Counted from the first letter of the stretch, positions 1,630 through 39,181 are shown. The stretch: DNA of 39,502 bases from Patescibacteria group bacterium (GCA_034659355.1 JAYEHC010000045.1:1-39502); one strand, 5' to 3'. Numbers and translations: made by a program. Notes: a model not told the origin generated them from the sequence alone.

Positions 1630-3456
1630 ATGAATCTTATCAATACCCAAAACATTATTATAATAATATCAATTCTCGCTCTTATCAAAATCGCTCGCGA
1701 TAGTTTGTTTTATCTGTGGCTGTGGCAAATTAAGGAATATAGAACAGATCGGATGAGGGCTTATTTGAGAGACGAGAATGCTGGTTCCATAGTCCCGTTA
1801 GGGCTGTGGAACCAAAATGCAAAAAGGCTCCACAGGGCTATCGCCACTATGGAGCCAGCAGCAGTTTATTTTATCGCACTGATTTTAATTTTAGTTTTCT
1901 ATTTTAGCCAACGAATTCTTGTCTATCTAACGCTACTATTTTTCACTTTTACTTTCTATCAAATTTTAAAAGAGATAAAAAACAGAATTTTAAAACGACC
2001 GAAATTTACCTTTAGGATATTATTTTCACTTTTTGTGATTGCTGTTTTCTATTCGGTTGTTGCGTTTTCGTGGATTCCTCCCGAATTTACTTCGGGAGGA
2101 ATGACAAAAATAGGCGTAGTAAATATATGGACGATAGAAGTAAAAGCGGTAGAAATAATTTTACTTTTATTATTTTTCTATCTCGTCACTCCAATTTTAA
2201 TTACCGCGATTATTTTATTCACTAATCCGTTTTTCAATTTCCAGAAAAAGAGGATTATTAAAAGGGCGAGTTTAAAAATGAAGGGATTAAAAAAAATAAA
2301 AGTTATCGGAATAACGGGCAGTTACGGCAAGACAAGTACGAAAGAATTTCTGAATACTATTTTAAGCCAGAAATACAAAGTTGTTAAAACCGCGGGGAAT
2401 AATAACACGAATATCGGTGTGGCAAGGACAGTGCTGAATAAAGTGAATGATAATTATGATTATTTCATCTGTGAAATGGGCGCGTATAAAATCGGCGAGA
2501 TTGCCGAGATTTGTAATATCGTAAAACCCGAGATAGGAATCTTAACCGGCATTAACGAACAACACCTTGATTTATTCGGATCAATTGAGAATACGGTTAA
2601 AGCGAAATTTGAGTTGATTGAAGCGTTACCAGAAAATGGGTTGGCGATTATAAATTCAAGTATCAAGCAGAACTTACGCATTTGTCATTCCGACCGAAGT
2701 GAACGAGGTACGAGCGAACGGAGTGGAGGAATCTGTAAACACAAAATACTTGCTTTTGATAAAGATACTTTAAAGTACACATCTTATCTGCTCACAGATC
2801 CCTCGGCTCCTATCGTCGCTCGGGATGACAAAAGTTCTGTTAGAGTTGAGAATATAAAACATTTTTCTTTAGACAATGTAAGCGATATTAAAGTTCGTCA
2901 AGATTATGTAGAATTTATTTACAAAGACCAAAAGTTCAAAGCTGATTTTCTTGGCAGACATTATATAGAAAATTTATTAGCGGCTATTATCACAGCGGAA
3001 AATTTGGGAATGAGCTTGGAAGAGATCTCGGAAGCAATAAAAAAAATAGAACCGTCCAAATTTATGATGAGAAAACTGGACGGTTTAAATAATTCTATTT
3101 TTATTGATGACAGTTATAGCGCCAATCCTGACGGCGTAATTGCCGGATTAAATTATTTAGATGAAGCATATCAAGGCTATAGAAAAATAATTGTTTTTCC
3201 GGGAATTATAGAATTAGGAAATAAATCAGAAGAAGTACATCGTAAATTGTTTGGCGGAATAGACAAGATTTGCGATATTGCATATATAATGAGAATCAAA
3301 AATCAAAAATCAAAAATCAAAAATAACTGTAAGTTTATTTTTGAGGAAAGTTTTGATAAGGTAGTGGAGATGCTAAAAAATAATCTTAATAAAAAAACCG
3401 TTGTTCTTTTTGAAAGTCGTGGGGCGGGAGTGGTGATGGGAAAATTAAAAACATAG
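1630..3456 (+). CDS. murF: MurF-like Mur ligase (UDP-MurNAc-tripeptide--D-Ala-D-Ala ligase) with about 220-aa N-terminal membrane domain
   Basis: Mur ligase P-loop GITGSYGKTSTKE, then CEMGA...GILTGINEQHLD and DDSYSANPDG motifs. The N-terminus is hydrophobic and multi-helix. Three repeat-derived in-frame inserts are present. Confidence 0.85.
   Translation: MNLINTQNIIIIISILALIKIARDSLFYLWLWQIKEYRTDRMRAYLRDENAGSIVPLGLWNQNAKRLHRAIATMEPAAVYFIALILILVFYFSQRILVYLTLLFFTFTFYQILKEIKNRILKRPKFTFRILFSLFVIAVFYSVVAFSWIPPEFTSGGMTKIGVVNIWTIEVKAVEIILLLLFFYLVTPILITAIILFTNPFFNFQKKRIIKRASLKMKGLKKIKVIGITGSYGKTSTKEFLNTILSQKYKVVKTAGNNNTNIGVARTVLNKVNDNYDYFICEMGAYKIGEIAEICNIVKPEIGILTGINEQHLDLFGSIENTVKAKFELIEALPENGLAIINSSIKQNLRICHSDRSERGTSERSGGICKHKILAFDKDTLKYTSYLLTDPSAPIVARDDKSSVRVENIKHFSLDNVSDIKVRQDYVEFIYKDQKFKADFLGRHYIENLLAAIITAENLGMSLEEISEAIKKIEPSKFMMRKLDGLNNSIFIDDSYSANPDGVIAGLNYLDEAYQGYRKIIVFPGIIELGNKSEEVHRKLFGGIDKICDIAYIMRIKNQKSKIKNNCKFIFEESFDKVVEMLKNNLNKKTVVLFESRGAGVVMGKLKT
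1783..1856. repeat. two tandem 31-nt family F-type hairpins inside murF
   Basis: GGTTCCATAGTCCCGTTAGGGCTGTGGAACC followed by GGCTCCACAGGGCTATCGCCACTATGGAGCC, both translated in frame. Confidence 0.75.
2070..2105. repeat. 36-nt solo hairpin unit inside murF
   Basis: GTGGATTCCTCCCGAATTTACTTCGGGAGGAATGAC. Intergenic copies lie at 12837 and 34951. Confidence 0.8.
2684..2829. repeat. family B MITE copy inside the murF reading frame
   Basis: GTCATTCCGACCGAAGTGAACGAGG...GGAGGAATCTGT...CTCGGGATGAC. Translated as ICHSDRSERGTSERSGGICKH...PIVARDDK with no frame disruption. Confidence 0.8.
3294..3324 (+). repeat. heptanucleotide tandem repeat (AATCAAA) x4.4 inside a CDS
   Basis: Read directly from the sequence. 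Encodes IKNQKSKIKN of MurF. Confidence 0.9.
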
Positions 3457-3483: not shown

Positions 3484-3621
3484 TAGGCTCTGCTGATTTC
3501 TCCAATTGTTCCCCCTTTGTAAAACCGGGCAGGATTAATTAAAACAAGCTAAATTATTTTTTTAAGACATATTTAAGCTTATCTTTTTTTATAAAAAATA
3601 GATGAAAATCAGCAGAGTCTA
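3484..3621. repeat. family D MITE (TAGGCTCTGCTGATTT termini)
   Basis: Inverted copy of 25865-26021. Shares the CCCCCTTTGTAAAA/TTTTACAAAGGGGG hairpin. Confidence 0.88.
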
Positions 3622-3628
3622 AATATTT

Positions 3629-5648: not shown

Positions 5649-6014
5649 ATGAAAGAGGAAGTATTGTTGAATAATAATTCAGAAAGAAAAAGCCTTTTTG
5701 ACTGGTTAAAAGATTTTAAACAAGAAGTTAAAGAAATATTTGATGATGGCGAACTTACTGATGCTGTTGAAGCGAATATAAACGCAAACTTGCTTGATGA
5801 CAATATTCTAAATATGATAGCGGTAGTGATTGATGTAAAAGTTAAAAAAGGTGAAATAGAAAAGAGAAAAGCCATTGATGTTTTTGTGGCAATAAAAAAT
5901 AGGATTGATGAATATAATAGTTTGTACAGAAAAGAAGAAATAAATTACAATGAGTTGAATTTTGATTTCAGGTATTTATTAGGAAACAATGACGATTTAA
6001 ATAATAGTGTTTAG
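5649..6014 (+). CDS. hypothetical acidic protein
   Basis: 121-aa ORF between tuf and rpsJ. No motif recognised. Confidence 0.4.
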   Translation: MKEEVLLNNNSERKSLFDWLKDFKQEVKEIFDDGELTDAVEANINANLLDDNILNMIAVVIDVKVKKGEIEKRKAIDVFVAIKNRIDEYNSLYRKEEINYNELNFDFRYLLGNNDDLNNSV

Positions 6015-6417: not shown

Positions 6418-6529
6418 GTCATTCTCGTGAAGACGGGAATCCATTGCTACAATTTATTTTATTAAAAATCAAGTGATTAATGGTAAAAATAAAATTGTAA
6501 TAGTGGATTCTTGCCTTCGCAGGAATGAC
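6418..6529. repeat. family A MITE/REPIN-like doublet (about 112 bp)
   Basis: GTCATTCTCGTGAAGACGGGAATCCATTGCTACAAT ... ATTGTAATAGTGGATTCTTGCCTTCGCAGGAATGAC. Near-identical to the copy at 10638. Confidence 0.9.
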
Positions 6530-6748: not shown

Positions 6749-6906
6749 GTCATTCCGACTGGAATGAAGCGAAGCGGAATGGAATGGAGGAATCTGTGAG
6801 CGAATAAAATGTGTTTCTAAAACTATTTTTAAAAGCAGGCATAATTGTGTTTACAGATTTCTCCATTTCGCTTGTTCGTGCCTCACTTCGCTCCAGTCGA
6901 AATGAC
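6749..6906. repeat. family B MITE (158 bp, GTCATTCCGAC termini)
   Basis: GTCATTCCGACTGGAATGAAGCGAAGCGG...CGCTCCAGTCGAAATGAC long imperfect hairpin between rpsJ and rplC. Confidence 0.85.
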
Positions 6907-7898: not shown

Positions 7899-8456
7899 AT
7901 GCTGGTAGCAATAGCGGCAGTGCCGGCGGCAGCCTATACATACAATCGGCAAGCAGCGGCAGACTACGCGCTTAACAACGCGTACAAAAATGTGCCAGGA
8001 AGCTGGCATTTTAGAGACAATGGTGGTGATTGTACCAACTTTGTATCCCATTCTCTTAAAGCAGGAGGATGGAGGGAAATCGGAGGATGGAGTCATACAA
8101 GCGATGATGTATGGTTTTATGACTACCCGTATAGATATGGGTATAGCCATACATGGACACACGCCGATAAGTTCTATCATTTTATGAGTAGAACTTCAAG
8201 AGCTAATCCTGTTTCAGTAAAAAGAAACAGTTATCTGTTGCAAGTAGGCGATGTTGTCCAGATAGACTACAAGGATAGGTATGGAAATTATGGAAGCTGG
8301 GATCATACGATGATTGTTACCGCTAAAGCGGGCAACAAATTGTTTATGTCTTATCACACGAAAGACACGGGAAATAGAGCTCTTTCAGCTATAAGACAAG
8401 AGAGCCCGAATGCTCGCTTTATTGGCTGGCATATCCATAATAACTACAACTACTAA
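7899..8456 (+). CDS. putative cell-wall amidase (Amidase_6-like domain)
   Basis: The GGDCTNFVSHSLKAGGW motif is typical of the putative amidase domain family. The gene is locally much more GC-rich than its neighbours. A signal-anchor-like sequence is encoded in frame upstream of the ATG. Confidence 0.6.
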   Translation: MLVAIAAVPAAAYTYNRQAAADYALNNAYKNVPGSWHFRDNGGDCTNFVSHSLKAGGWREIGGWSHTSDDVWFYDYPYRYGYSHTWTHADKFYHFMSRTSRANPVSVKRNSYLLQVGDVVQIDYKDRYGNYGSWDHTMIVTAKAGNKLFMSYHTKDTGNRALSAIRQESPNARFIGWHIHNNYNY

Positions 8457-8573: not shown

Positions 8574-9293
8574 ATGAACTTTAATAAAAAATATATAATT
8601 ATTTCAACGGTGGTTTCTATGTTGTTTATAATTATGTTTCATGAAATATATTTCTTATTTGAATTTCTTGTACCTTATTCTAATATAGTAAATGTAGTTT
8701 TTGCTGTAATCCTTTTGTTCATTTTAAAATATTTTTACGACAAAAAGCGTTTAAATACTTTTATAGCAATTTCCATATTGTCAATGATATTTTTCATATT
8801 TTGTTTAGATGATATTCTTCCCTCTTTCATAGAAAAAGTCACTAATAAAACACCTGAGGAAAAAGTTGAAGTTTATGTGCGAGCGGTTGCCGAAAATGAT
8901 AAAGAGAAAGCGTTGAGTCTTTGGGAAATTCCTGATTCTTACAAACTCAATTTGGAATATCGCAATAAAATAAAAGATCGCGGAAAACAGATAACTGGAA
9001 AAATGATTGAAAAGGGGATAAAATCGGATTTTACCATTACGCATATTGAATGGTGGAGTACTTGTTGTATGCCAAGCGTAACTGAAAATTCTCGTGTAGC
9101 AGGAGAAGCTAAAGTCCATGTTCAGCTTATAGATTCTAATAATATTAAATCCGTTTATATTTTTGATGTTATTGTTCCAGGAGGTTATGAAGGAGGATTG
9201 ACAGAACATTCAATTCGGCATTGGGTCATATCTGATATTTACCCCGAAAACGAAGAATCGTTGTTTTGGACGAGGAAAAACGAAAATTTTTAA
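8574..9293 (+). CDS. hypothetical membrane protein
   Basis: 239-aa ORF with three N-terminal hydrophobic helices and a soluble C-terminal domain. No motif recognised. Confidence 0.5.
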   Translation: MNFNKKYIIISTVVSMLFIIMFHEIYFLFEFLVPYSNIVNVVFAVILLFILKYFYDKKRLNTFIAISILSMIFFIFCLDDILPSFIEKVTNKTPEEKVEVYVRAVAENDKEKALSLWEIPDSYKLNLEYRNKIKDRGKQITGKMIEKGIKSDFTITHIEWWSTCCMPSVTENSRVAGEAKVHVQLIDSNNIKSVYIFDVIVPGGYEGGLTEHSIRHWVISDIYPENEESLFWTRKNENF

Positions 9294-10637: not shown

Positions 10638-10748
10638 GTCATTCCCGTGAAGACGAGAATCCATTGCTACAATTTATTTTATGAAAAGTCAAGTAATGAA
10701 TGGTAAAAATAAATTGTAATAGTGGATTCCTGCCTACGCAGGAATGAC
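10638..10748. repeat. family A MITE/REPIN-like doublet
   Basis: Roughly 90 percent identical by eye to 6418-6529. Lies between rplW and rplB. Confidence 0.9.
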
Positions 10749-11691: not shown

Positions 11692-11892
11692 GTCATTCTG
11701 AACTTGGTTTAGAATCTACTTTCTTTTATATCTGACTAAATCTACAAATCACTGAACTTTTGAATAAATTGAAAATGCAACAATTATGTTAATAAAAGGA
11801 TGATTGAGTTTGTTCTGTAAATGAAAGTCTAGTGTAAATAGGATAAGTCAAAATCTAAGATACGAAAGATTCTGAAACAAGTTCAGAATGAC
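11692..11892. repeat. family C MITE (about 200 bp, GTCATTCTGAAC...GTTCAGAATGAC)
   Basis: The termini match 24702 and 34726. The interior is homologous in inverted orientation. Lies between rplB and rpsS. Confidence 0.88.
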
Positions 11893-14053: not shown

Positions 14054-14128
14054 AAATCATATAAACATTTAAACTTGTGAATATAAGATATGATTATATG
14101 TTTAAATGCTTATATGCTTAAATGATTT
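14054..14128. repeat. AT-rich intergenic palindrome sharing the CATATAAACATTTAAAC module
   Basis: The same 17-mer recurs at about 17470. Its inverted partner GATTATATGTTTAAATGC is present. Confidence 0.6.
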
Positions 14129-14131
14129 ATT

Positions 14132-14332
14132 ATGAAAGCAAAAGAAATTAGACAACAATCCGATAAGCAGTTGCAGAATTTAATAAGAGAAAATAAAGAG
14201 AAACTGAAAAAGTTAAGATTTTCGCTTTCTAACAGGCAATTGAAAGATTATAGCGCGATAAATCAAACAAAGAAAATTATTGCCAGAGCAAAAACGATTT
14301 TAAAAGAAAGGATTTTGAAAGCAGATAACTAA
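14132..14332 (+). CDS. rpmC: 50S ribosomal protein L29
   Basis: 66-aa ORF in the conserved position between L16 and S17. KAKEIRQQSDKQL...LRF is L29-like. Confidence 0.9.
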   Translation: MKAKEIRQQSDKQLQNLIRENKEKLKKLRFSLSNRQLKDYSAINQTKKIIARAKTILKERILKADN

Positions 14333-14352
14333 TTTGAAAAGTAATTATATAT

Positions 14353-14622
14353 ATGAATAAAGAAAATAATAAAGAAACTAAAAGCGTGAAGAAAGGCAAA
14401 GTCGGGATTGTTGTGAGTGATAAAATGGATAAAACGGTTGTAGTGAAAATTGATCGGTTGAAAATGCACGCTAAATATAAGAAAAAATATAAAGTAAGCA
14501 AGAAATACAAAGCGCATGACGCGGGGAATGAATTTAAGATTGGAGATAAAGTTGAGATTATGGAAGTTAAGCCGATGAGCAAGGAGAAGAAGTGGGTGGC
14601 GAGGAGAGTTGAAAGTTTATAA
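14353..14622 (+). CDS. rpsQ: 30S ribosomal protein S17
   Basis: GIVVSDKMDKTVVVKIDR...HKKY...HD..N....GD.V.I.E..P.SK matches S17. Confidence 0.95.
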   Translation: MNKENNKETKSVKKGKVGIVVSDKMDKTVVVKIDRLKMHAKYKKKYKVSKKYKAHDAGNEFKIGDKVEIMEVKPMSKEKKWVARRVESL

Positions 14623-14672
14623 AAGAGAAGCAGAGAGTTTATAAAGTTGTAAAGTTGTAAAGAATGCTCTCT

Positions 14673-15113
14673 GTCATTCCCGCGTAGGCGGGAATCCATT
14701 GATACATTAAACTACATTTAAAAAAACAAAAGCAATAATTTTTTATGAAGCAATGTTATCTTTATATTTTAGCAAGTATAAAAAATGGCACTTTATATAT
14801 AGGAGTAACAAATAATTTACTAAGAAGAGTGCTTGAGCATAAAGATGATCTTGTTGACGGATTCACAAAAAAATACAAAGTTCATAAACTTGTTTGTTAT
14901 GAAGAAATTGATGATATTAAAGTTGCTATCCAAAGAGAAAAGCAAATTAAAAAATGGGAAAGGCAATGGAAGATAAATTTGATTGAAAAGAACAATCCCG
15001 AATGGAAAGATTTATATTACGATTTGCTTGACCAAAGTTAAATTTAGCAAAAGATTAGTGAAAATAATATAGTTGAGTGGTAATAATGGATTCCTGCCTA
15101 CGCGGGAATGACA
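14673..15113. mobile_element. 441-bp element with hairpin terminal inverted repeats carrying the GIY-YIG gene
   Basis: The left end is GTCATTCCCGCGTAGGCGGGAATCCATT. The reverse complement of the right end differs at 1 of 28 nt. The termini are the same as the family A MITEs. The subterminal AAAAGATTAG is shared with the MITE at 24317. Confidence 0.75.
14745..15041 (+). CDS. GIY-YIG nuclease family protein (short UPF0213/COG2827 type)
   Basis: YLYILAS..NGTLYIGVTNNLLRRVLEHK plus a downstream REKQIKKW motif. The 98 aa cover a catalytic domain only. Confidence 0.85.
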   Translation: MKQCYLYILASIKNGTLYIGVTNNLLRRVLEHKDDLVDGFTKKYKVHKLVCYEEIDDIKVAIQREKQIKKWERQWKINLIEKNNPEWKDLYYDLLDQS

Positions 15114-15226
15114 ATGCTGGAGGAAGATAAAAAGAGCAGTATGAAGAAATTAATAAGTACAATTATTGATATAGCAGTTAGACGATATATTTCTTATAAA
15201 AATAAGCAAAAGAATAATAAACAAAT

Positions 15227-15601
15227 ATGATTCAACAAGGAAGCAAACTTATCGTTGCGGACAATTCGGGGGCGAAATTGATTAAGTGCATTAAAGTTCT
15301 TGGCGGGACGAGAAGGCGCTATGCTTATGTTGGCGATGTGATTGTCGCGTCTGTGAAAGTGTCCGAGCCGAGAGGGCAGGTTAAGAAAAAAGAAGTTATT
15401 AAAGTTGTGATTGTCAGGCAGAAAAAAGCGTTAAGAAGAAAAGATGGATCATATATTCGTTTTGATGATAATGCTGCTGTGGTTGTTGACGACAAAGACA
15501 GGATAACACCGAGAGCGACTCGTGTTTTCGGACCGGTAGCGAGAGAATTGCGAGAAAAAGGTTTTATGAAAATAGTCTCATTGGCGCCGGAAGTATTATA
15601 G
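15227..15601 (+). CDS. rplN: 50S ribosomal protein L14
   Basis: [17 protein letters not shown]...RFDDNA matches L14. Confidence 0.98.
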
Positions 15602-17467: not shown

Positions 17468-17501
17468 ATAGCATATAAACATTTAAACATATAAACAAGT
17501 T

Positions 17502-17533
17502 GTTTAAATGTTTAAATGTTTAAATGTTTAAAT
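17502..17533 (+). repeat. octanucleotide tandem repeat (GTTTAAAT) x4
   Basis: Read directly in the rpsH-rplF spacer. Forms a palindrome with the upstream ATTTAAAC units. Confidence 0.85.
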
Positions 17534-19757: not shown

Positions 19758-20093
19758 ATGAAAGAAGTTCAATCAATAAATGAGAACCCTGCTGAGTTGT
19801 TTGTAGGAATAGATAATCTAAGAAAGTGTCATTTTAAAAATGAAGATCAAGAAAGAGCGGTTTTTTTGAACGCAATTAAAGAAAATACAGAAGTTGGTAG
19901 TCTTGTAGAAGATAGTTTTTTAATAGCTCCGCAAAATAATCCGGAGGAAGGTGCGTATTTTCTGCAGTATGGTCAAGAAAACGACGTTACATATAGTGTT
20001 GAAGAGATAGAAACATTGGCTGATTTTGGAAGCGCTAAAGGATTGTTTGAGAAATACAGAAAGGAAGTAGACGAAATATTAGAAAGAGAATAG
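19758..20093 (+). CDS. hypothetical acidic protein
   Basis: 111-aa ORF between rplO and secY. No motif recognised. Confidence 0.4.
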   Translation: MKEVQSINENPAELFVGIDNLRKCHFKNEDQERAVFLNAIKENTEVGSLVEDSFLIAPQNNPEEGAYFLQYGQENDVTYSVEEIETLADFGSAKGLFEKYRKEVDEILERE

Positions 20094-21559: not shown

Positions 21560-21727
21560 GTCATTCCCGCGGAGGCGGGAATCCATATGAAGTTTCATCA
21601 ATCGTTATTTTTGAATAAACTTATTGCAAACAAATCAGCGATAGTATTAAGCGATATTTCAACCATTATAGCGATATTTTAAAAACTGAAGATATTGCGT
21701 CTGGATTCCTGCCTCTGCAGGAATGAC
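21560..21727. repeat. family A MITE-like unit (168 bp) at the left end of the larger element
   Basis: A left hairpin end plus a diverged right hairpin end. Confidence 0.7.
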
Positions 21728-21766: not shown

Positions 21767-22699
21767 ATGCTGTATAAAATAAATAAAGAAAATCTAAACG
21801 CTATTAAAGAAAAAAGTATTTTAGAAAAAGACATTGAGAAACTTGTTGGGAGAAATCTTGATTGTCTGATGGGATTAAAATTTGTTTATTTTCAATTTCC
21901 AGTTGATAATAAATATATTGATATTCTTGCGTTTGATGAAGAAGTAAATGCTCCAGTTTTGATTGAACTTAAAAAAGAAAATGATAAAGGGCTTTTTGAT
22001 CAGGGAATGGAATATTTTAATCTTTTATCAACTAGAAAAGAATGCTTTCTTATTAAGCTCTGCGAGGTTTTAATAAAAATACCCGCAAAGCTTTCAGCTG
22101 TTGACTGGTCATCTTCGCGGGTTATTTTTATTGGCAAGAATTTTACAGAAAGACAAAGGAGAGCAGTTGATTTTCGCGGATTGCCTATTGAACTTTGGGA
22201 TTACGATTGGTACGAGGGTGATTATTTTAAATTAGAACAAATTGGCTTAGAAAAAAGAGCTAGTTTGGATATAAAAGAAATTAAGGGAAATTCTATTTCA
22301 AAAATTGAAAAAGAATTTAAAGAGCACACAGAAGATGAATATAAAAACAAAACGAGTGAAAAAGCTTGGGAAATTTTTAAAAATATTAAAGAAGAGCTTT
22401 TAAAGTGGAACAGAGTTAGAATGAATATGACAAACAATTATATTAGTTTTACTTATAGAAATTGTGCACTTTCTTATATTTATTTTAAAAAAGATAAATT
22501 AAAAATTCGTTTTGGAAAAGAAGAATACAAGTTAAACATAGCTGACAATTTGAAAGTAAAAAATGTTAGAATTAAAAATGAGCGTCCTAAATTCTCCGCG
22601 CATTATGAAATTACAGTGGAAGATTCTAATAATTTATTGGAGTTTATTTTTATTGTTAAGCAGATATATAAAAAGATTGACGAAGAATATTTAAAATAG
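21767..22699 (+). CDS. PD-(D/E)xK (NucS/DUF91-like) nuclease-fold protein with uncharacterised C-terminal domain
   Basis: N-terminal pattern YIDILAFDEE-x7-LIELKK fits a D...E-x-K restriction-endonuclease-like core. The rest is unassigned. Confidence 0.5.
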   Translation: MLYKINKENLNAIKEKSILEKDIEKLVGRNLDCLMGLKFVYFQFPVDNKYIDILAFDEEVNAPVLIELKKENDKGLFDQGMEYFNLLSTRKECFLIKLCEVLIKIPAKLSAVDWSSSRVIFIGKNFTERQRRAVDFRGLPIELWDYDWYEGDYFKLEQIGLEKRASLDIKEIKGNSISKIEKEFKEHTEDEYKNKTSEKAWEIFKNIKEELLKWNRVRMNMTNNYISFTYRNCALSYIYFKKDKLKIRFGKEEYKLNIADNLKVKNVRIKNERPKFSAHYEITVEDSNNLLEFIFIVKQIYKKIDEEYLK

Positions 22700-22817
22700 T
22701 CATAACAAGATTTTTTATTTTTTCTAAAACAATTATTTTTTAAATAGAGTTTTACCTGATTTAATGGATTCCCGCCTCCGCGGGAATGACAACGATATTA
22801 CTTTTTCATAAACAAAA

Positions 22818-23393: not shown

Positions 23394-23440
23394 AAACGCA
23401 TAGAAATTTATTGTTATGATACTTCGTGTATTTATACACT

Positions 23441-23609
23441 GTCATTCCCGCGGAGGCAGAAATCCATTATTACAATAAACTCAAACTATTTTCACAAATC
23501 TTAATCTTGAAATTAACTTCAACTAACCCGTGCGTGGATCCCAGATATTTTTTATATTGTAGGAAACAGGCAATGCCTGTTCTCTACAATAGAAAAAATT
23601 CTGGGATGA
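23441..23609. repeat. family A-related MITE with a nested palindrome in its right hairpin
   Basis: Left end GTCATTCCCGCGGAGGCAGAAATCCATT. The right end GGATCCCAGA[...]TTCTGGGATGAC is split by the ATTGTAGGAAACAGGCAATGCCTGTTCTCTACAAT palindrome. Confidence 0.75.
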
Positions 23610-24316: not shown

Positions 24317-24428
24317 GTCATTCCCGCGTAGGCGGGAATCCAATAAGTCAGAAAAATGTTATTCAAAAGATTAGCTTGTATAGAAATAGTAAATCGTAGT
24401 AGTGGATTCCCGCCTCCGCAGGAATGAC
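24317..24428. repeat. family A MITE/REPIN-like doublet (112 bp)
   Basis: The left end is identical to the left end of the GIY-YIG element over GTCATTCCCGCGTAGGCGGGAATCCA. The right end is GTGGATTCCCGCCTCCGCAGGAATGAC. Confidence 0.9.
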
Positions 24429-24606
24429 AGTAAAAAATATATGAATCCTCCGCGGGAACTGATTTGTAACCAGTTTCCAATATTTCTCAAGCAAATAAAA
24501 CTTGTAAGTCTTAAAAACAAAGGAAACGGGTTACAAACCCGTTCCCGCATTGCAAAGAAGAAACAAATGGTTCAAGTCAGAGACATTGAACCAACGATAG
24601 GAGTTT

Positions 24607-24691
24607 AGCTTGTTTTAACTAATCCTGCCCGGAAATCCCCCTAGCCCCCTTTTACAAAGGGGGAACAATTGGAGAAAATCAGCAGAGCTTA
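24607..24691. repeat. family D MITE, right half only
   Basis: AGCTTGTTTTAACTAATCCTGCCCGG...AAAATCAGCAGAGCTTA aligns with 25935-26021. Confidence 0.8.
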
Positions 24692-24701
24692 AATAAAATT
24701 T

Positions 24702-24950
24702 GTCATTCTGATCCGCCAGCTGGCGGATTCAGAATCTTCGTTATATTAGGTTTTAACTTATACTATTTTCATCATACTTTCGTCTACGACGCAAACACAA
24801 TTATCTTTCTATAATAATACAATTATTGCATTTTCAGCTTATTCAAAGGTTTAGTGATTTATAGGTTCGGTTAAATGTAAAAGAGAGTAGATTCTGAAAC
24901 AAGTTCAGAATGACAGGTTAGTTCAGAATAACAGGTTAGTTCAGAATGAC
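24702..24950. repeat. family C MITE with an altered left hairpin and a tandemly triplicated right end
   Basis: The left hairpin is GTCATTCTGATCCGCCAGCTGGCGGATTCAGAATC. The right end is GTTCAGAATGACAGGTTA in 2.7 copies (24903-24950). Confidence 0.85.
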
Positions 24951-25823: not shown

Positions 25824-25864
25824 AAGTTAAAGTCTGAACTTCAGTGGATTTGAAGATTGCTATT

Positions 25865-26021
25865 TAGGCTCTGCTGATTTTCATCTATTTTTTATAAAAA
25901 GAGATAAACTTAAATATGCCTTAAAAAAATAATTCAGCTTGTTTTAACTAATCCTATCCGGAACTCCTCCCTAACTCCCTTTTACAAAGGGGGAACAATT
26001 AGAGAAAATCAGCAGAGCCTA
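25865..26021. repeat. family D MITE (157 bp)
   Basis: TAGGCTCTGCTGATTTTCATC...GAGAAAATCAGCAGAGCCTA, between map and the LCP gene. Confidence 0.88.
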
Positions 26022-34705: not shown

Positions 34706-34725
34706 ATTGTAATTTGTCATTCTGA

Positions 34726-35052
34726 ACTTGTTTCAGAATCTTCGTTATTTTAGGTTTTGACTTATATTATTTACATCATGCTTTTGCCTACGACACAAAT
34801 ACAATTATCTTTCTGTTTAACACAATCACTGCATTCCCAGTTTATTCAAATACCCAGTGATTTGTAGGTTTAATTAAGTATAGTGGTAATACCTTAAAAT
34901 TACTTTTTTTATTTCAATGTCTGATGCAGGATTTATCATTTATTGTAGCAGTGGATTCCTCCCGAAAGTTCTCGGGAGGAATGACAAATAGCTATTTTTA
35001 AAATAATACCACTATATAAAAAAAGTAGATTCCAAACCAAGTTCAGAATGAC
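34726..35052. repeat. family C MITE with a nested 35-nt hairpin unit
   Basis: The left 130 bp aligns with 24730-24860. The nested unit GTGGATTCCTCCCGAAAGTTCTCGGGAGGAATGAC lies at 34951-34985. Confidence 0.85.
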
Positions 35053-36131: not shown

Positions 36132-36854
36132 ATGCTTACCAATGAAACAATTATAAAATTAGCCGCAAAAATGCAGACTTCGGAACAAAATGTTCGGCGT
36201 GAATATTTTCAACATTTATTTTTGTCTTTGTTCTACAAGCAAGACGGAGCGGACAAAGTGTTTTTCAAAGGCGGTACCGCCTTGCGCCTTATTTATAACA
36301 GCCCGCGCTTTTCCGAAGATCTGGATTTTAATTCGCCTTTAGCCGATGTCCATAGCATTGAAAATGCTATCGTTAACACCCTTGTTGAAGTACAAAAGGG
36401 CGGGGTAGAAACGGAACTTGACGAGGCAAAAAAAACAAGCGGCGGTTATCTTTCAACGATGCGATTTATTGGTATGGGTCGCGCCGTTCCTATCCGGATA
36501 GAAATATCATTCCGCGATCGCAAGAAAAAAGGCGAGGCGGTTTTTATCGCCAGCGATATGTTTCCGGATTATACAATTGTACAGTTAGTCAGCGAGCAGC
36601 TTATACAGGGTAAGGTTGACGCTTTGCTTGACCGCAAGAAACCGCGCGATTTTTACGACTTTTATTTTCTGATGCGCCGCAACCTGCTTCCGGAAAAAGA
36701 TAAAGGCGATGTCTTACGGCAAGTTTTTGAAGCCTTGAAGAAAACTGATATTAATTTTGACAGTGAGTTAAAAGAATTTCTTCCTAAAAGCCATCACATG
36801 ATCGTGAAAGATTTTAAGACAACTTTAAAAAGAGAGATAGAGAGGTTTATATAA
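36132..36854 (+). CDS. abiEii: AbiEii/AbiGii-family nucleotidyltransferase toxin (DUF1814)
   Basis: Hallmark FFKGGTALRLIYNSPRFSEDLDF motif, plus the downstream KPRDFYD motif. Confidence 0.85.
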   Translation: MLTNETIIKLAAKMQTSEQNVRREYFQHLFLSLFYKQDGADKVFFKGGTALRLIYNSPRFSEDLDFNSPLADVHSIENAIVNTLVEVQKGGVETELDEAKKTSGGYLSTMRFIGMGRAVPIRIEISFRDRKKKGEAVFIASDMFPDYTIVQLVSEQLIQGKVDALLDRKKPRDFYDFYFLMRRNLLPEKDKGDVLRQVFEALKKTDINFDSELKEFLPKSHHMIVKDFKTTLKREIERFI

Positions 36855-36901
36855 TGGAAGCGTGCAAATTTACATACTTGCGCTAAGAATATCAAAAAAA
36901 T

Positions 36902-38308
36902 ATGCCAAAATTAAAAGACATTCCAAAAGTAGACAGACCAAGGGAAAGGTTTTTGAAAAAAGGTTCAGATGCGCTTTCTAAAAGCGAGCTTTTGGCTGTT
37001 CTTATCAGCAGCGGCATCAGGGGTAAAAATGTCAAAAAAATTTCTGAGCAGATCATCAGAAAATTTGGTGATAAATTTTTGGATTTGACTGTTGAGGATT
37101 TGCTTGGAGTTTCCGGAATAGGGGAGGCAAAGGCGCTTCAAATTGTTTCAGCTATCGCTCTGACGAAAAGATTTTATGATGAAAAAAATCCGAAAGAAAA
37201 TCTCGTCTTATCAGCGAAAGACGCTATTTTTTTAAATTCCGATTTAAAAGAAAAGAAAAAAGAATATTTGGTCTGCTTGTATCTAAACGCCAGGAATGTT
37301 TTATTGAAAAAAGAAATTGTTTCAATCGGAACTCTTGACAAAGGGATAGTCCACCCGAGAGAAATTTTCGCGCCAGCTTTAGAATTGAGATCGGCTGGCA
37401 TCATTCTGGTGCATAATCACCCATCAGGCGATCCGTCTCCGAGCGAACAAGATAGGGAAGTTTTTGACAGAATTATTGAAGCGGGCAAGATAATAGGAGT
37501 CAATGTCATTGATTTTATTATTATCGCCGGCAATGAGAATTACAGTTTTTTGGGAAGTTTGCAGGGAGAAGATAAAAACGATCTTTATATTTCAAATGGC
37601 ATCCAGCCCTCGCTTTTTGATCTTTTGATGGACAAGAAAGCGGAATATGAACCTGAGCAGCAAAAAACAAAAAATATAAGGATTATAGATTTATTCGCAG
37701 GAATCGGCGGGATAAAAATCGGCTTTGAAAACGCCGGATTTGAATGTGTTTTTTCTAATGATTTTGACAAGAACTGCAAAGTTACATACGATTTTAATTT
37801 TGCGAGAAAGCAGAAATCGCTGATCTGCGCCGACATTGCCGAGGTTTCGTTAGATTTAATTCCGGACTTTGAAGTGCTCACAGGAGGATTCCCGTGCCAG
37901 CCGTTTTCAATAGCGGGATACCGCAAAGGATTTTCAGACGAGGGCAGGGGAGACTTATTTTTTGAAATTATAAGAATATTAAAAGACAAAAAGCCGGCAG
38001 CTTTTCTGCTTGAAAATGTAAAAAATCTTAAAACTCACGACAATGGAAAAACACTGCGGATTATTTATAAAGAGCTTCAAAAATTAGGATACCATATCGG
38101 TAGCAAGGTGCTTAACACTATGGAGCATGGAAACATCCCCCAGAACAGAGAGCGCATTTACATTGTCGGATTTTTAGACCAAGAAGCGTTTAATAGTTTT
38201 TCATTTCCGGAAAAAATCAAGCTGACAAAAACTATTCATGACTGCCTGGAGCCGGATGCCGATGAAAAATATTATTATAAACGGCAAGCCTCTTTATGGA
38301 AAATTTAA
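36902..38308 (+). CDS. RadC-like JAB/MPN domain fused to the N-terminal half (motifs I-VIII) of a C5-cytosine DNA methyltransferase
   Basis: RadC part: PRERFLKKG, HhH GIGEAKA, and JAMM HNHPSGDPSPSEQD. MTase part: DLFAGIGG (I), GGFPCQPFS (IV), LLENVKNL (VI), QNRERIYIVGF (VIII). The ORF ends at an in-frame TAA. Confidence 0.8.
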   Translation: MPKLKDIPKVDRPRERFLKKGSDALSKSELLAVLISSGIRGKNVKKISEQIIRKFGDKFLDLTVEDLLGVSGIGEAKALQIVSAIALTKRFYDEKNPKENLVLSAKDAIFLNSDLKEKKKEYLVCLYLNARNVLLKKEIVSIGTLDKGIVHPREIFAPALELRSAGIILVHNHPSGDPSPSEQDREVFDRIIEAGKIIGVNVIDFIIIAGNENYSFLGSLQGEDKNDLYISNGIQPSLFDLLMDKKAEYEPEQQKTKNIRIIDLFAGIGGIKIGFENAGFECVFSNDFDKNCKVTYDFNFARKQKSLICADIAEVSLDLIPDFEVLTGGFPCQPFSIAGYRKGFSDEGRGDLFFEIIRILKDKKPAAFLLENVKNLKTHDNGKTLRIIYKELQKLGYHIGSKVLNTMEHGNIPQNRERIYIVGFLDQEAFNSFSFPEKIKLTKTIHDCLEPDADEKYYYKRQASLWKI

Positions 38309-38407
38309 AAAAGAAATCACTAAAAAAATACGGTTTACCAATGGAGAAGAAAATATGTAAGAGAAAATAAGAATGGTGTTTGCCTTACTTTAACAGCAAC
38401 TTATTAA
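38309..38407 (+). pseudogene. remnant of the m5C methyltransferase variable-region entry segment, same frame, cut by TAA codons
   Basis: The ORF frame continues as KRNH*KNTVYQWRRKYVRENKNGVCLTLTATY*. The QWRR...TLTA block is typical of Dcm-type enzymes. Motifs IX and X are absent downstream. Confidence 0.7.
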
Positions 38408-38413
38408 ATTACT

Positions 38414-39181
38414 ATGGAAGGAAATAAGCATAAAAATTATGAAATATTAAACTTGATAGGCTATGGTCTCTCAAAATTTAATGATGATTTTATAAGAGAA
38501 TTTGGATTTTCAACAAAAACAGCTTTTTATAATTTTTGTGTTGAAAATAAAATTGCAGAAACAGTCGGCACTGTAAAAAATAGAATGGATTTATTCGATC
38601 ATTTTTTTCCAGAAAACGGAAGGAAGGGTTGGTGGCAAAAAGGAGATGCCTATATTCATAGAAAGATATTGATTGATAGTTTATTTGGTGATGAAAATGC
38701 AAAGAGCTATGCAAATATAGTGAAATTACATATGAAAGAAGAATTTCATGTGAAAAGCATTGAATATCAAGCAAAACCAATTATTAAAACTAGATTTAAA
38801 AAACTACAAGAAACAGGATTAGAAGCAGAATTATTTTTTATGAATAATTACAACTCAATAGATATTTTTCAAAATGGATTACTGGAAGATGCCAGATTGT
38901 ATGGAGATGGGTACGATTTTCAAATAAGTGTAAATGAACAATCTTATCTAGCAGAAATAAAAGGAATAAGAGCAAAAAAAGGAAAATTTAGACTTACTGA
39001 AAATGAATATCAAAAAGCATTAGAATATAAAAATGACTATATTATAACTTTAATTTTAAATCTAAATGAAATTCCTAGAATTCTTACAATTGAAGATCCT
39101 ATTAAAAATCTAAAATTTGAAGAGAGATTTATAAAATCCAAAACTACAAAAGAATATCATTTAACCAAAGCAATATGTTAA
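38414..39181 (+). CDS. DUF3883-like PD-(D/E)xK restriction-endonuclease-fold protein
   Basis: The C-terminal GDGYDFQI...YLAEIKGIR...FRLTENEYQKA pattern fits D...E-x-K with the DUF3883 layout. Very AT-rich compared with the upstream genes. Confidence 0.55.
   Translation: MEGNKHKNYEILNLIGYGLSKFNDDFIREFGFSTKTAFYNFCVENKIAETVGTVKNRMDLFDHFFPENGRKGWWQKGDAYIHRKILIDSLFGDENAKSYANIVKLHMKEEFHVKSIEYQAKPIIKTRFKKLQETGLEAELFFMNNYNSIDIFQNGLLEDARLYGDGYDFQISVNEQSYLAEIKGIRAKKGKFRLTENEYQKALEYKNDYIITLILNLNEIPRILTIEDPIKNLKFEERFIKSKTTKEYHLTKAIC

Follow-up and report, generated by a model that had tools for sequence, protein, structure and literature searches.

The 39,502-nucleotide stretch of DNA analysed here (GCA_034659355.1 JAYEHC010000045.1:1-39502; the whole stretch is called the window) is AT-rich (35% G+C) and contains an S10-spc operon of ribosomal protein genes; going by the sources named for the closest L14 homologues, the host is one of the Patescibacteria (Parcubacteria/Paceibacteria-like). 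Between the S17 (rpsQ) and L14 (rplN) genes of this operon lies a small gene, ssn, which encodes a GIY-YIG nuclease and is enclosed by two inverted hairpins. The best explanation for this arrangement, held at a probability of roughly 0.75, is that it belongs to the Ssn family, with ssn placed between inward-facing copies of its own recognition motif (SRM), a (C/T)GTC-tagged repetitive extragenic palindromic (REP) hairpin. Judged from its sequence, the element is probably a further member of a published nuclease and hairpin-repeat system and not a new kind of element. An original prediction, read from the raw sequence, had regarded the system as undescribed; the same gene family, the hairpins, and the cleavage of single-stranded DNA (ssDNA) beside the hairpin had already been reported by Chenal et al. 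2025 (Nat Commun, PMC11893778). The raw-sequence reading had thus rediscovered a real and recently published system, which validates the reading and removes the claim to novelty. All that it described in the sequence was confirmed, and its view of the architecture is sound.

Ssn proteins are described in PMC11893778 as 94-aa single-domain GIY-YIG proteins (CDD cd10448) bracketed by SRM hairpins across phyla. Four of them bind the hairpin in ssDNA only and cut a few nt upstream of it, on one strand only, with no activity on double-stranded DNA (dsDNA) or RNA. The Neisseria form of the motif, NTS, is defined there as CGTCATTCCCGCGMAVGCGGGAATCYRG and contains the dRS3 core; the NTS-ssnA-NTS arrangement was noted as resembling an insertion sequence (IS), and the analogy to IS200/IS605 and to REP/RAYT (REP-associated tyrosine transposase) was drawn in the same paper. 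Earlier, Di Nocera et al. 2013 (PMC3733652) had classed these hairpins as CGTC-tagged REPs, including dRS3 and Rickettsia RPE-4/RPE-6. The CGTC-tagged REPs of that study have a tag that is often TGTC, an 8-9-bp stem from AT, a 4-5-nt loop, and a CCA tail; they are mainly inverted dimers, some of them intragenic, and were remarked to be without a dedicated transposase. The resemblance to dRS3, which the original prediction had suspected of being coincidence, is one of kinship, as dRS3 and NTS are the same repeat family (CGTC-1 REPs, PMC3733652). A literature search found no paper on the topic later than Chenal et al. 2025.

The nuclease

The sole significant Pfam match of the 98-aa protein is PF01541 (GIY-YIG; E=4.4e-17, residues 4-78), as expected from the original description of a GIY-YIG-only protein between rpsQ and rplN. 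Its size and its single domain, with no added DNA-binding domain, are those of Ssn proteins (~90-100 aa). When the residues of the translation are compared with those named for N. meningitidis SsnA in Chenal et al. 2025, Y7, Y18, and E65 are found at the same spacing (11 and 47 residues) as the catalytic Y6, Y17, and E64 that were mutated there. The protein has 7152 homologues, the best ones being 60-91% identical. A sequence search of the PDB yielded no Ssn structure and only weak UPF0213/Slx1 matches (1zg2, 1ywl, 7wme; E=0.06-0.4), a similarity that fits a separate GIY-YIG family. An NCBIfam search with the protein gave nothing above cut-off. Classification as an I-TevI-type GIY-YIG homing endonuclease was considered and rejected, as the protein is without the extra domain and the group I intron endonuclease model reaches 19.8 bits against a cut-off of 56. 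Among 2.9 million viral contigs, there was one weak match and no real ssn homologue, and carriage of ssn by phages is therefore unsupported. The dN/dS of Ssn (0.07-0.18) is in the same range as that of S17, L24, and L14, which indicates a functional gene under purifying selection.

The hairpin ends

The left end reads TGTC-ATTCCCGC-GTAG-GCGGGAAT-CCA in full and folds with an 8-bp stem and a 4-nt loop (-8.9 kcal/mol, z=-3.1, DNA parameters). The 28-mer GTCATTCCCGCGTAGGCGGGAATCCATT matches 14673-14700(+) with no mismatch and 15085-15112(-) with one, so the ends first described as inverted 28-nt copies agreeing at 27 positions, each of them a hairpin, are borne out. With up to three mismatches, the same 28-mer is found eight times in the window, 0.00 matches being expected. 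At the right end, GCAGGAAT replaces GCGGGAAT (15089-15112); one stem pair is broken, and the predicted stability is -3.4 vs -8.9 kcal/mol. Both hairpins face inwards, 72 nt upstream of the start codon and 71 nt downstream of the stop codon.

The agreement with the published motifs is close. The window hairpin differs from the NTS consensus CGTCATTCCCGCGMAVGCGGGAATCYRG at 3 of 28 positions. The published SRM regular expression has three exact sites in the window, the left end among them (0.02 expected), and the right end departs from it by one mismatch; with at most one mismatch it finds eight sites, seven of which are tagged hairpins (1.1 expected). The exact expression is strict on stem bases and recovers only these three of the copies, and the structural definition GTC-stem-loop-stem-C was used instead; a looser structural detector, applied first, was dropped for its many AT-rich false positives. 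Furthermore, T-GTC-ATTCCCGC-GTAG-GCGGGAAT-CCA has the tag, the 8-bp stem from AT, the 4-nt loop, and the CCA tail of CGTC-tagged REPs, specifically of the CGTC-1 type. The inverted dimers and intragenic units of that class are also present, as at least eight doublets in the window and as in-frame copies in a Mur ligase gene.

Association of gene and hairpins across phyla

The association extends far beyond this contig. A scan of species-representative genomes gave 80 loci with homologues 56-73% identical to the window protein, spanning Proteobacteria, Planctomycetota, Bacteroidota, Omnitrophota, Caldisericota, Spirochaetes, many Patescibacteria, and others. With a structural hairpin detector (GTC, at least a 7-bp stem, loop, stem, C), inward-facing hairpins were found within 400 nt on both sides of the gene in 61 of the 80 loci and on at least one side in 76. 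The median distance from hairpin to gene is 44 nt on the start-codon side and 38 nt on the stop-codon side, and the median unit measures 377 bp. Hairpin density reaches 3.4 per kb near the gene, 14 times the 0.24 per kb found elsewhere in these loci. Moreover, the window protein is 60-73% identical to homologues in Proteobacteria and other phyla whose flanking hairpins equal the NTS consensus, which speaks indirectly for its homology to SsnA. The co-occurrence of this GIY-YIG family with the hairpins, on which the original prediction had made itself depend, is thus strong.

Some of these findings also bear on a homing-type selfish gene, whereby the doublets came first, ssn inserted as a parasite in the middle of one, and the hairpins are its target and not its ends. 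The unit does look as if a gene had been placed in the middle of a doublet, homing endonucleases typically have GIY-YIG domains (PMC1564403), and Ssn homologues 60-73% identical occur across unrelated phyla, which suggests horizontal spread. However, published Ssn enzymes do not cut dsDNA (PMC11893778), the gene occupies one site in this lineage while many gene-less doublets stand unoccupied, and no intermediate states are seen. Homing is accordingly judged improbable.

A discrete unit at the S17-L14 position

The retrieved Ssn homologues that come closest to the window protein (84-91% identity) are all encoded between S17 and L14, in related contigs. In five orthologous loci, those of the window and of L082, L088, L091, and L093, the unit measures 438-442 bp. 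Identity among the orthologous units is 89-99% over the left end (72 nt) and 81-92% over the right end, whereas the DNA just outside is 18-55% alignable between the window and the others; identity collapses exactly at GTC...GAC. The stem of the right hairpin is perfect in all four orthologous units. The gene and its two hairpins are one discrete unit, conserved as a block. The chance flanking of an unrelated small gene by two independent insertions of miniature inverted-repeat transposable elements (MITEs), which the original prediction had raised against itself, is practically impossible and counts as refuted: the window is repeat-rich, with 25 TGTCATTC sites in 39.5 kb, but the hairpins keep the same boundaries in all five orthologous loci, and the same layout recurs in 61/80 loci of other phyla, many with only those two hairpins in 10 kb.

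The dN/dS values, together with the shared S17-L14 site, indicate that ssn is functional and has been inherited vertically at rpsQ-rplN, like RAYT genes. The search for an empty site between rpsQ and rplN, suggested along with the original prediction, yielded no clean empty allele; the relatives without the unit (L081 and L085-87) hold a different gene there. In L081, the closest relative (L14 97% identical), and in L085-87, an unrelated gene of 123-147 aa replaces the unit; the L081 protein has no Pfam match. A decayed left hairpin with its 5' arm deleted precedes this cargo gene in L085-87, and thus the hairpin marks a boundary of the gene replacement. In other relatives, the unit is followed by a gene for a 76-84-aa membrane protein, of which the window keeps a 40-codon remnant (15108-15230).

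These observations may also be read in terms of a host function, namely restriction of ssDNA or control of transformation as in Neisseria. Ssn would then cut incoming or exposed ssDNA at the hairpins and so shape recombination, as an alternative or additional function, and the repeats would spread and be kept for this host function without Ssn being their mobiliser. This is the sole function demonstrated in vivo for the Ssn family (PMC11893778). Vertical inheritance under purifying selection, as in a host gene, is in its favour, and so is the alternative cargo at S17-L14, where one replacement boundary lies inside a hairpin (L085-87), in keeping with hairpins as recombination break points. It leaves unexplained how whole doublets of 112-200 bp with a conserved interior come to stand at new sites, and why the gene is so tightly bracketed in 61/80 loci. 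As an explanation of the repeats it is possible, yet rather unlikely; it is compatible with the Ssn/SRM explanation and does not exclude it.

The repeat family in the window

The tagged string TGTCATTC has 25 sites in 39.5 kb against 1.4 expected, and a T precedes GTC at all 25; the T(T) noticed originally as a left flank therefore includes a base of the motif itself. The frame T-GTC-[stem]-loop-[stem']-C is common to every copy, and the stems vary. The stem is ATTCCCGC..GCGGGAAT in type A, ATTCTGAA..TTCAGAAT in type B, and ATTCCTCCCGA..TCGGGAGGAAT in type C, with long-stem forms at 2684, 6749, and 24702. Both stem arms change together while the unpaired tag and the trailing C are invariant, which points to recognition of a folded single strand and a few fixed bases. 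Among the scanned loci, the type-B-flanked ssn genes (L044, L050, L053, L060, L069) have an open reading frame (ORF) that runs into the downstream hairpin, and the repeat encodes their C-terminal tails, e.g. DPETSSG and DSESSSE.

The three gene-less doublets of about 112 bp that had been reported at 6418, 10638, and 24317 are all present, and more were found (Table 1). The doublet at 6418 is 88% identical to one in a non-orthologous spacer of L081 and is foldable as one long hairpin (z=-6.7). The ends of the ssn unit and of the doublets are alignable for 45-70 nt past the hairpin. The subterminal string AAAAGATTAG of the unit recurs at 24365 inside the 24317 doublet, as had been stated; its three matches vs 0.69 expected are weak alone, and the point is supported by a BLAST alignment of unit positions 377-442 with 24364-24429 (78% over 68 nt). 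Additionally, the guanylate kinase gene is flanked by two solo ends, at 22736 and 23440, which copy the left and the right end of an ssn unit, respectively, and are remnants of further units.

An Rfam scan of the whole window returned no family at threshold; no known structured RNA explains the hairpins. A promoter and terminator scan of 14300-15300 showed no terminator-like site, and promoter-like sites were not in excess. Both results bear on the idea that the hairpins act at the RNA level of the operon, as terminators, attenuators, or stabilisers of mRNA, with the GIY-YIG gene adjacent only incidentally. Most copies do lie in spacers of a co-directional operon, and REPs have been proposed to act in RNA. 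However, there is no T-tract, terminator-like site, or Rfam match, the copies occur in both orientations and within coding sequence, and the association with the gene holds across phyla. The invariant unpaired GTC tag and trailing C are, moreover, as expected for a DNA motif recognised by a protein. An RNA-level role as the explanation is very improbable.

Doublets as mobile DNA

Orthologous ribosomal-operon spacers were compared among relatives. In the window, a 201-bp type-B doublet occupies the L2-S19 spacer, which is only 16-36 nt long in L081, L091, L093, and L094. Conversely, S19-L22 has a type-A doublet in L081 and none in the window, and S3-L16 and L24-L5 have type-B doublets in L093, against spacers of 19-47 nt in the window or other relatives. 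The Adk-Map spacer extends over 752 nt with two doublets in the window and over 146 nt in L082 and L085. The L23-L2 spacers of L082, L085, L088, L091, and L094 contain no tagged hairpin by the strict detector; they are similar in length (152-226 nt vs 180) and hold other repeat or palindromic DNA, with tag-like GTC strings in L094. Type-A doublets from non-orthologous sites share 88-93% identity from end to end, and the insertions start and stop at the TGTC...GACA tags. In agreement with what was first reported, no target-site duplication is visible in the filled/empty comparisons, in which AT-rich spacers align poorly. The doublets are foldable as one long hairpin (z=-6.7 and -8.9), as REPINs are, and the type-C hairpin within the 34716-35052 doublet is a nested insertion. 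Their presence in some and absence in other close relatives indicates that the doublets are or recently were mobile, as REPIN-like non-autonomous elements.

Hairpin repeats have also entered coding sequence. In the Mur ligase gene (1630-3456), they are inserted in-frame and are polymorphic among relatives (loci L097-L112). The site of the type-C hairpin, which encodes WIPPEFTSGGMT, is occupied by a type-A hairpin in L098 and is free of hairpins in L097, L099, and L100. The long-stem doublet of ~145 bp adds ~50 aa within the Mur_ligase_M domain; it is common to L097 and L098 and absent in more distant relatives. In L102, a type-B insertion lies elsewhere in the gene. A second palindromic repeat, GGCTCTACAGGGCTATCGCCACAATGGAGCC, unrelated to the tagged hairpins, also stands in-frame in genes (490-533 and 1814-1857; also in L099, L100, and L104). 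Its translation reads 'NAKRLH...TMEP', and some of the Mur ligase relatives have it and others do not.

Possible mechanism

Going by the homologues that have been studied, Ssn would bind the hairpin only in ssDNA, for instance at replication forks or during DNA uptake. It would then hydrolyse the tagged strand a few nt 5' of the GTC tag, as those enzymes do. Such cleavage at hairpins might drive the copying or the loss of doublets, and Ssn itself would be a 'domesticated' enzyme resident in the genome, much like RAYT. As no covalent intermediate is formed by a GIY-YIG hydrolase, the repeats would depend for their spread on repair or replication by the host and not on classical strand transfer. 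It is tentatively suggested, as less likely than not, that CGTC/TGTC-tagged REP doublets owe their propagation to Ssn, which would be the dedicated enzyme long missing for these repeats. The partnership would be REPIN/RAYT-like but with a hydrolytic GIY-YIG ssDNA nuclease in place of an HUH transposase.

Several points weigh against the Ssn/SRM explanation when it is extended to the spread of the repeats. GIY-YIG nucleases hydrolyse DNA and cannot alone join strands. Given the published strand specificity and the inverted hairpins of a doublet, only one cut would fall on each strand, which leaves excision of an ssDNA copy unexplained. The ssn gene itself is without sign of recent movement in this lineage, and L081, the closest relative, is without the unit at S17-L14 yet has a doublet. 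At least four hairpin stem types occur in the window beside only one ssn gene, and the right hairpin of the ssn unit carries the stem-breaking mutation. Furthermore, protein similarity does not track hairpin stem type across 52 loci (permutation p=0.50), a comparison that is underpowered with 46 type-A and only 6 type-B loci.

Features of the window and its neighbourhood

Table 1. Coordinates of the ssn unit, its neighbours, and the tagged repeats; positions refer to the window unless a related locus is named.
Feature	Position	Strand	Remarks
S17 (rpsQ)	14353-14622		5' neighbour of the ssn unit
Complete SRM-ssn-SRM unit, 440 bp	14673-15112	+	boundaries GTC...GAC
Left hairpin end (SRM / TGTC-tagged REP)	14673-14700	+	GTC-ATTCCCGC-GTAG-GCGGGAAT-CCATT; exact match to the published SRM expression
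Left subterminal non-coding segment	14701-14744	+	up to the ssn start codon; aligns with subterminal parts of doublets
ssn gene	14745-15041	+	98-aa single-domain GIY-YIG nuclease, Pfam PF01541
Right subterminal non-coding segment	15042-15084	+	AAAAGATTAG at 15049
Right hairpin end	15085-15112	-	inverted copy of the left end, one stem-breaking mismatch
L14 (rplN)	15227-15601		3' neighbour of the ssn unit
Type-C hairpin	2073-2105	-	in-frame in the Mur ligase ORF; encodes WIPPEFTSGGMT
Long-stem doublet	2684-2829	+	in-frame in the Mur ligase ORF; ~50-aa gap in relatives without it
Type-A gene-less doublet, S10-L3 spacer	6418-6529	.	92% identical to the 10638 doublet
Long-stem intergenic doublet	6749-6906	.	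kin of the intragenic 2684 doublet
Type-A doublet, L23-L2 spacer	10638-10748	.	inverted hairpin ends
Type-B doublet, L2-S19 spacer	11692-11892	.	ends GTC-ATTCTGAAC..GTTCAGAAT-C
Type-A doublet, 168 bp	21560-21727	.	downstream of SecY
Solo left end of an ssn unit	22736-22791	-	unit positions 1-54, 84% over 56 nt
Solo right end of an ssn unit	23440-23520	+	reaches the region by the stop codon; BLAST 86% over 64 nt; local alignment spans 79 unit positions
Type-A doublet, Adk-Map spacer	24317-24428	.	right part homologous to the right end of the ssn unit
Type-B doublet, long-stem variant	24702-24914	.	
Type-B doublet	34716-35052	.	type-C hairpin nested inside (34952-34985)
Alternative cargo, acidic 123-147-aa protein of unknown family	L081 2951-3394; L085 9593-9964; L087 2813-3220		

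Domain scans of the Pfam type on the window proteins found no transposase domain, including the Y1 type, and a phmmer search of six-frame ORFs found no second GIY-YIG gene in the window. Several non-ribosomal genes lie amid the S10-spc operon (5649-6014, 7899-8456, 8574-9293, 19758-20093, and 21767-22699), namely one for an Amidase_6 protein, one for a DUF5655 protein, and three of unknown family. Relatives hold other genes at those positions, e.g. for an HD-domain protein or an asparaginase fragment, and gene turnover is thus general in the operon spacers. Genes of the defence or mobile type lie at the contig's right end (36132-39181); they encode an AbiEii toxin, a fusion of a RadC-JAB domain with a C-5 cytosine methylase, and a NOV_C protein.

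Other repeats share the window with the tagged hairpins. One family has 101-nt inverted copies (3525-3625 / 25861-25961, 92% identity) and direct copies at 24604-24691 / 25933-26021 that hold the CCCCCTTTTACAAAGGGGG hairpin; it is unrelated to the GTC-tagged hairpins. Additionally, short tandem arrays with an 8-nt unit (TGTTTAAA / ATGCTTAT and complements, e.g. CATATAAA) stand at 14083-14131 and 17493-17533. Such arrays fill several ribosomal-gene spacers in the window, L082, and L091, often as inverted blocks.

Significance

The host, at the level of phylum, is new for this kind of element and the genomic position is unusual; the kind as such has been in print since 2025, and a catalogue of its repeats since 2013. 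Beyond Chenal et al. 2025, the locus contributes comparative evidence that the gene unit behaves as a domesticated, vertically inherited gene, and that, in a lineage whose genomes are very small, the gene-less doublets act like mobile DNA. The question is thereby sharpened to whether a hydrolytic GIY-YIG nuclease can drive the spread of repeats, and well-defined filled and empty sites are on offer for it. If Ssn does propagate the doublets, it would do so by a chemically new type of transposition-like mechanism, one that probably relies on repair or replication. The lineage would then be a natural test bed, having a tiny genome, one resident ssn unit, and doublets that turn over, even in-frame in genes.

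Comparison with known systems

The closest likeness is to the Ssn/NTS-SRM system. Both have a single-domain GIY-YIG protein of ~94-98 aa with the same catalytic spacing, inverted hairpins on both sides of the gene, and a near-identical hairpin (GTCATTCCCGCG-loop-GCGGGAATC); the hundreds of dispersed copies known there are implied here by the local density. Unlike Neisseria Ssn, the host belongs to the Patescibacteria (candidate phyla radiation, CPR) and the unit is fixed in the S10-spc ribosomal operon; the tag is TGTC here and CGTC there, and several stem types coexist here.

The repeats share with CGTC-tagged REPs the unpaired (C/T)GTC tag, the 8-9-bp stem from AT, the 4-5-nt loop, and the CCA-like tail, as well as the predominance of inverted dimers with some intragenic copies. 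The long-stem variants (2684, 6749, and 24702) exceed the published stem and loop lengths. In contrast to the account of Di Nocera 2013, which found no dedicated enzyme, a GIY-YIG gene goes with the repeats both here and in Chenal 2025. The in-frame intragenic copies in the Patescibacteria Mur ligase gene are like those of the Rickettsia RPE.

Among GIY-YIG proteins, UPF0213/YhbQ and Slx1 share the small GIY-YIG (URI) fold and provide the nearest solved structures; they match weakly only and have no known link to hairpin repeats.

As in IS200/IS605, there are subterminal hairpins recognised as ssDNA, no terminal target duplication, and a short T-rich insertion context. IS200/IS605 differ in having a Y1 transposase and, at their ends, two unlike hairpins that are directly oriented on one strand. 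The ends of the present unit are inverted copies of one hairpin, no Y1 domain is found, and the enzyme is unable to join DNA alone; membership in IS200/IS605 was rejected on the first two of these grounds.

Membership in RAYT/REPIN was likewise rejected, given the GIY-YIG protein, the GTC tag, and no Y1 transposase found in the window. RAYT is an HUH/Y1 enzyme (PF01797) with covalent DNA intermediates and GTAG-tagged REPs, whereas a GIY-YIG hydrolase and a GTC tag are found here. In organisation the parallel is nevertheless close. A single resident, vertically inherited gene lies between inverted hairpin repeats, as in REP/REPIN-RAYT, and the gene-less doublets, like REPINs, are foldable as one long hairpin and turn over between relatives. 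The original wording, a REP/RAYT-like arrangement with a different enzyme, is a fair description of this discrete unit, whose 45-70 nt of subterminal sequence are shared with doublets that are polymorphic in presence and absence.

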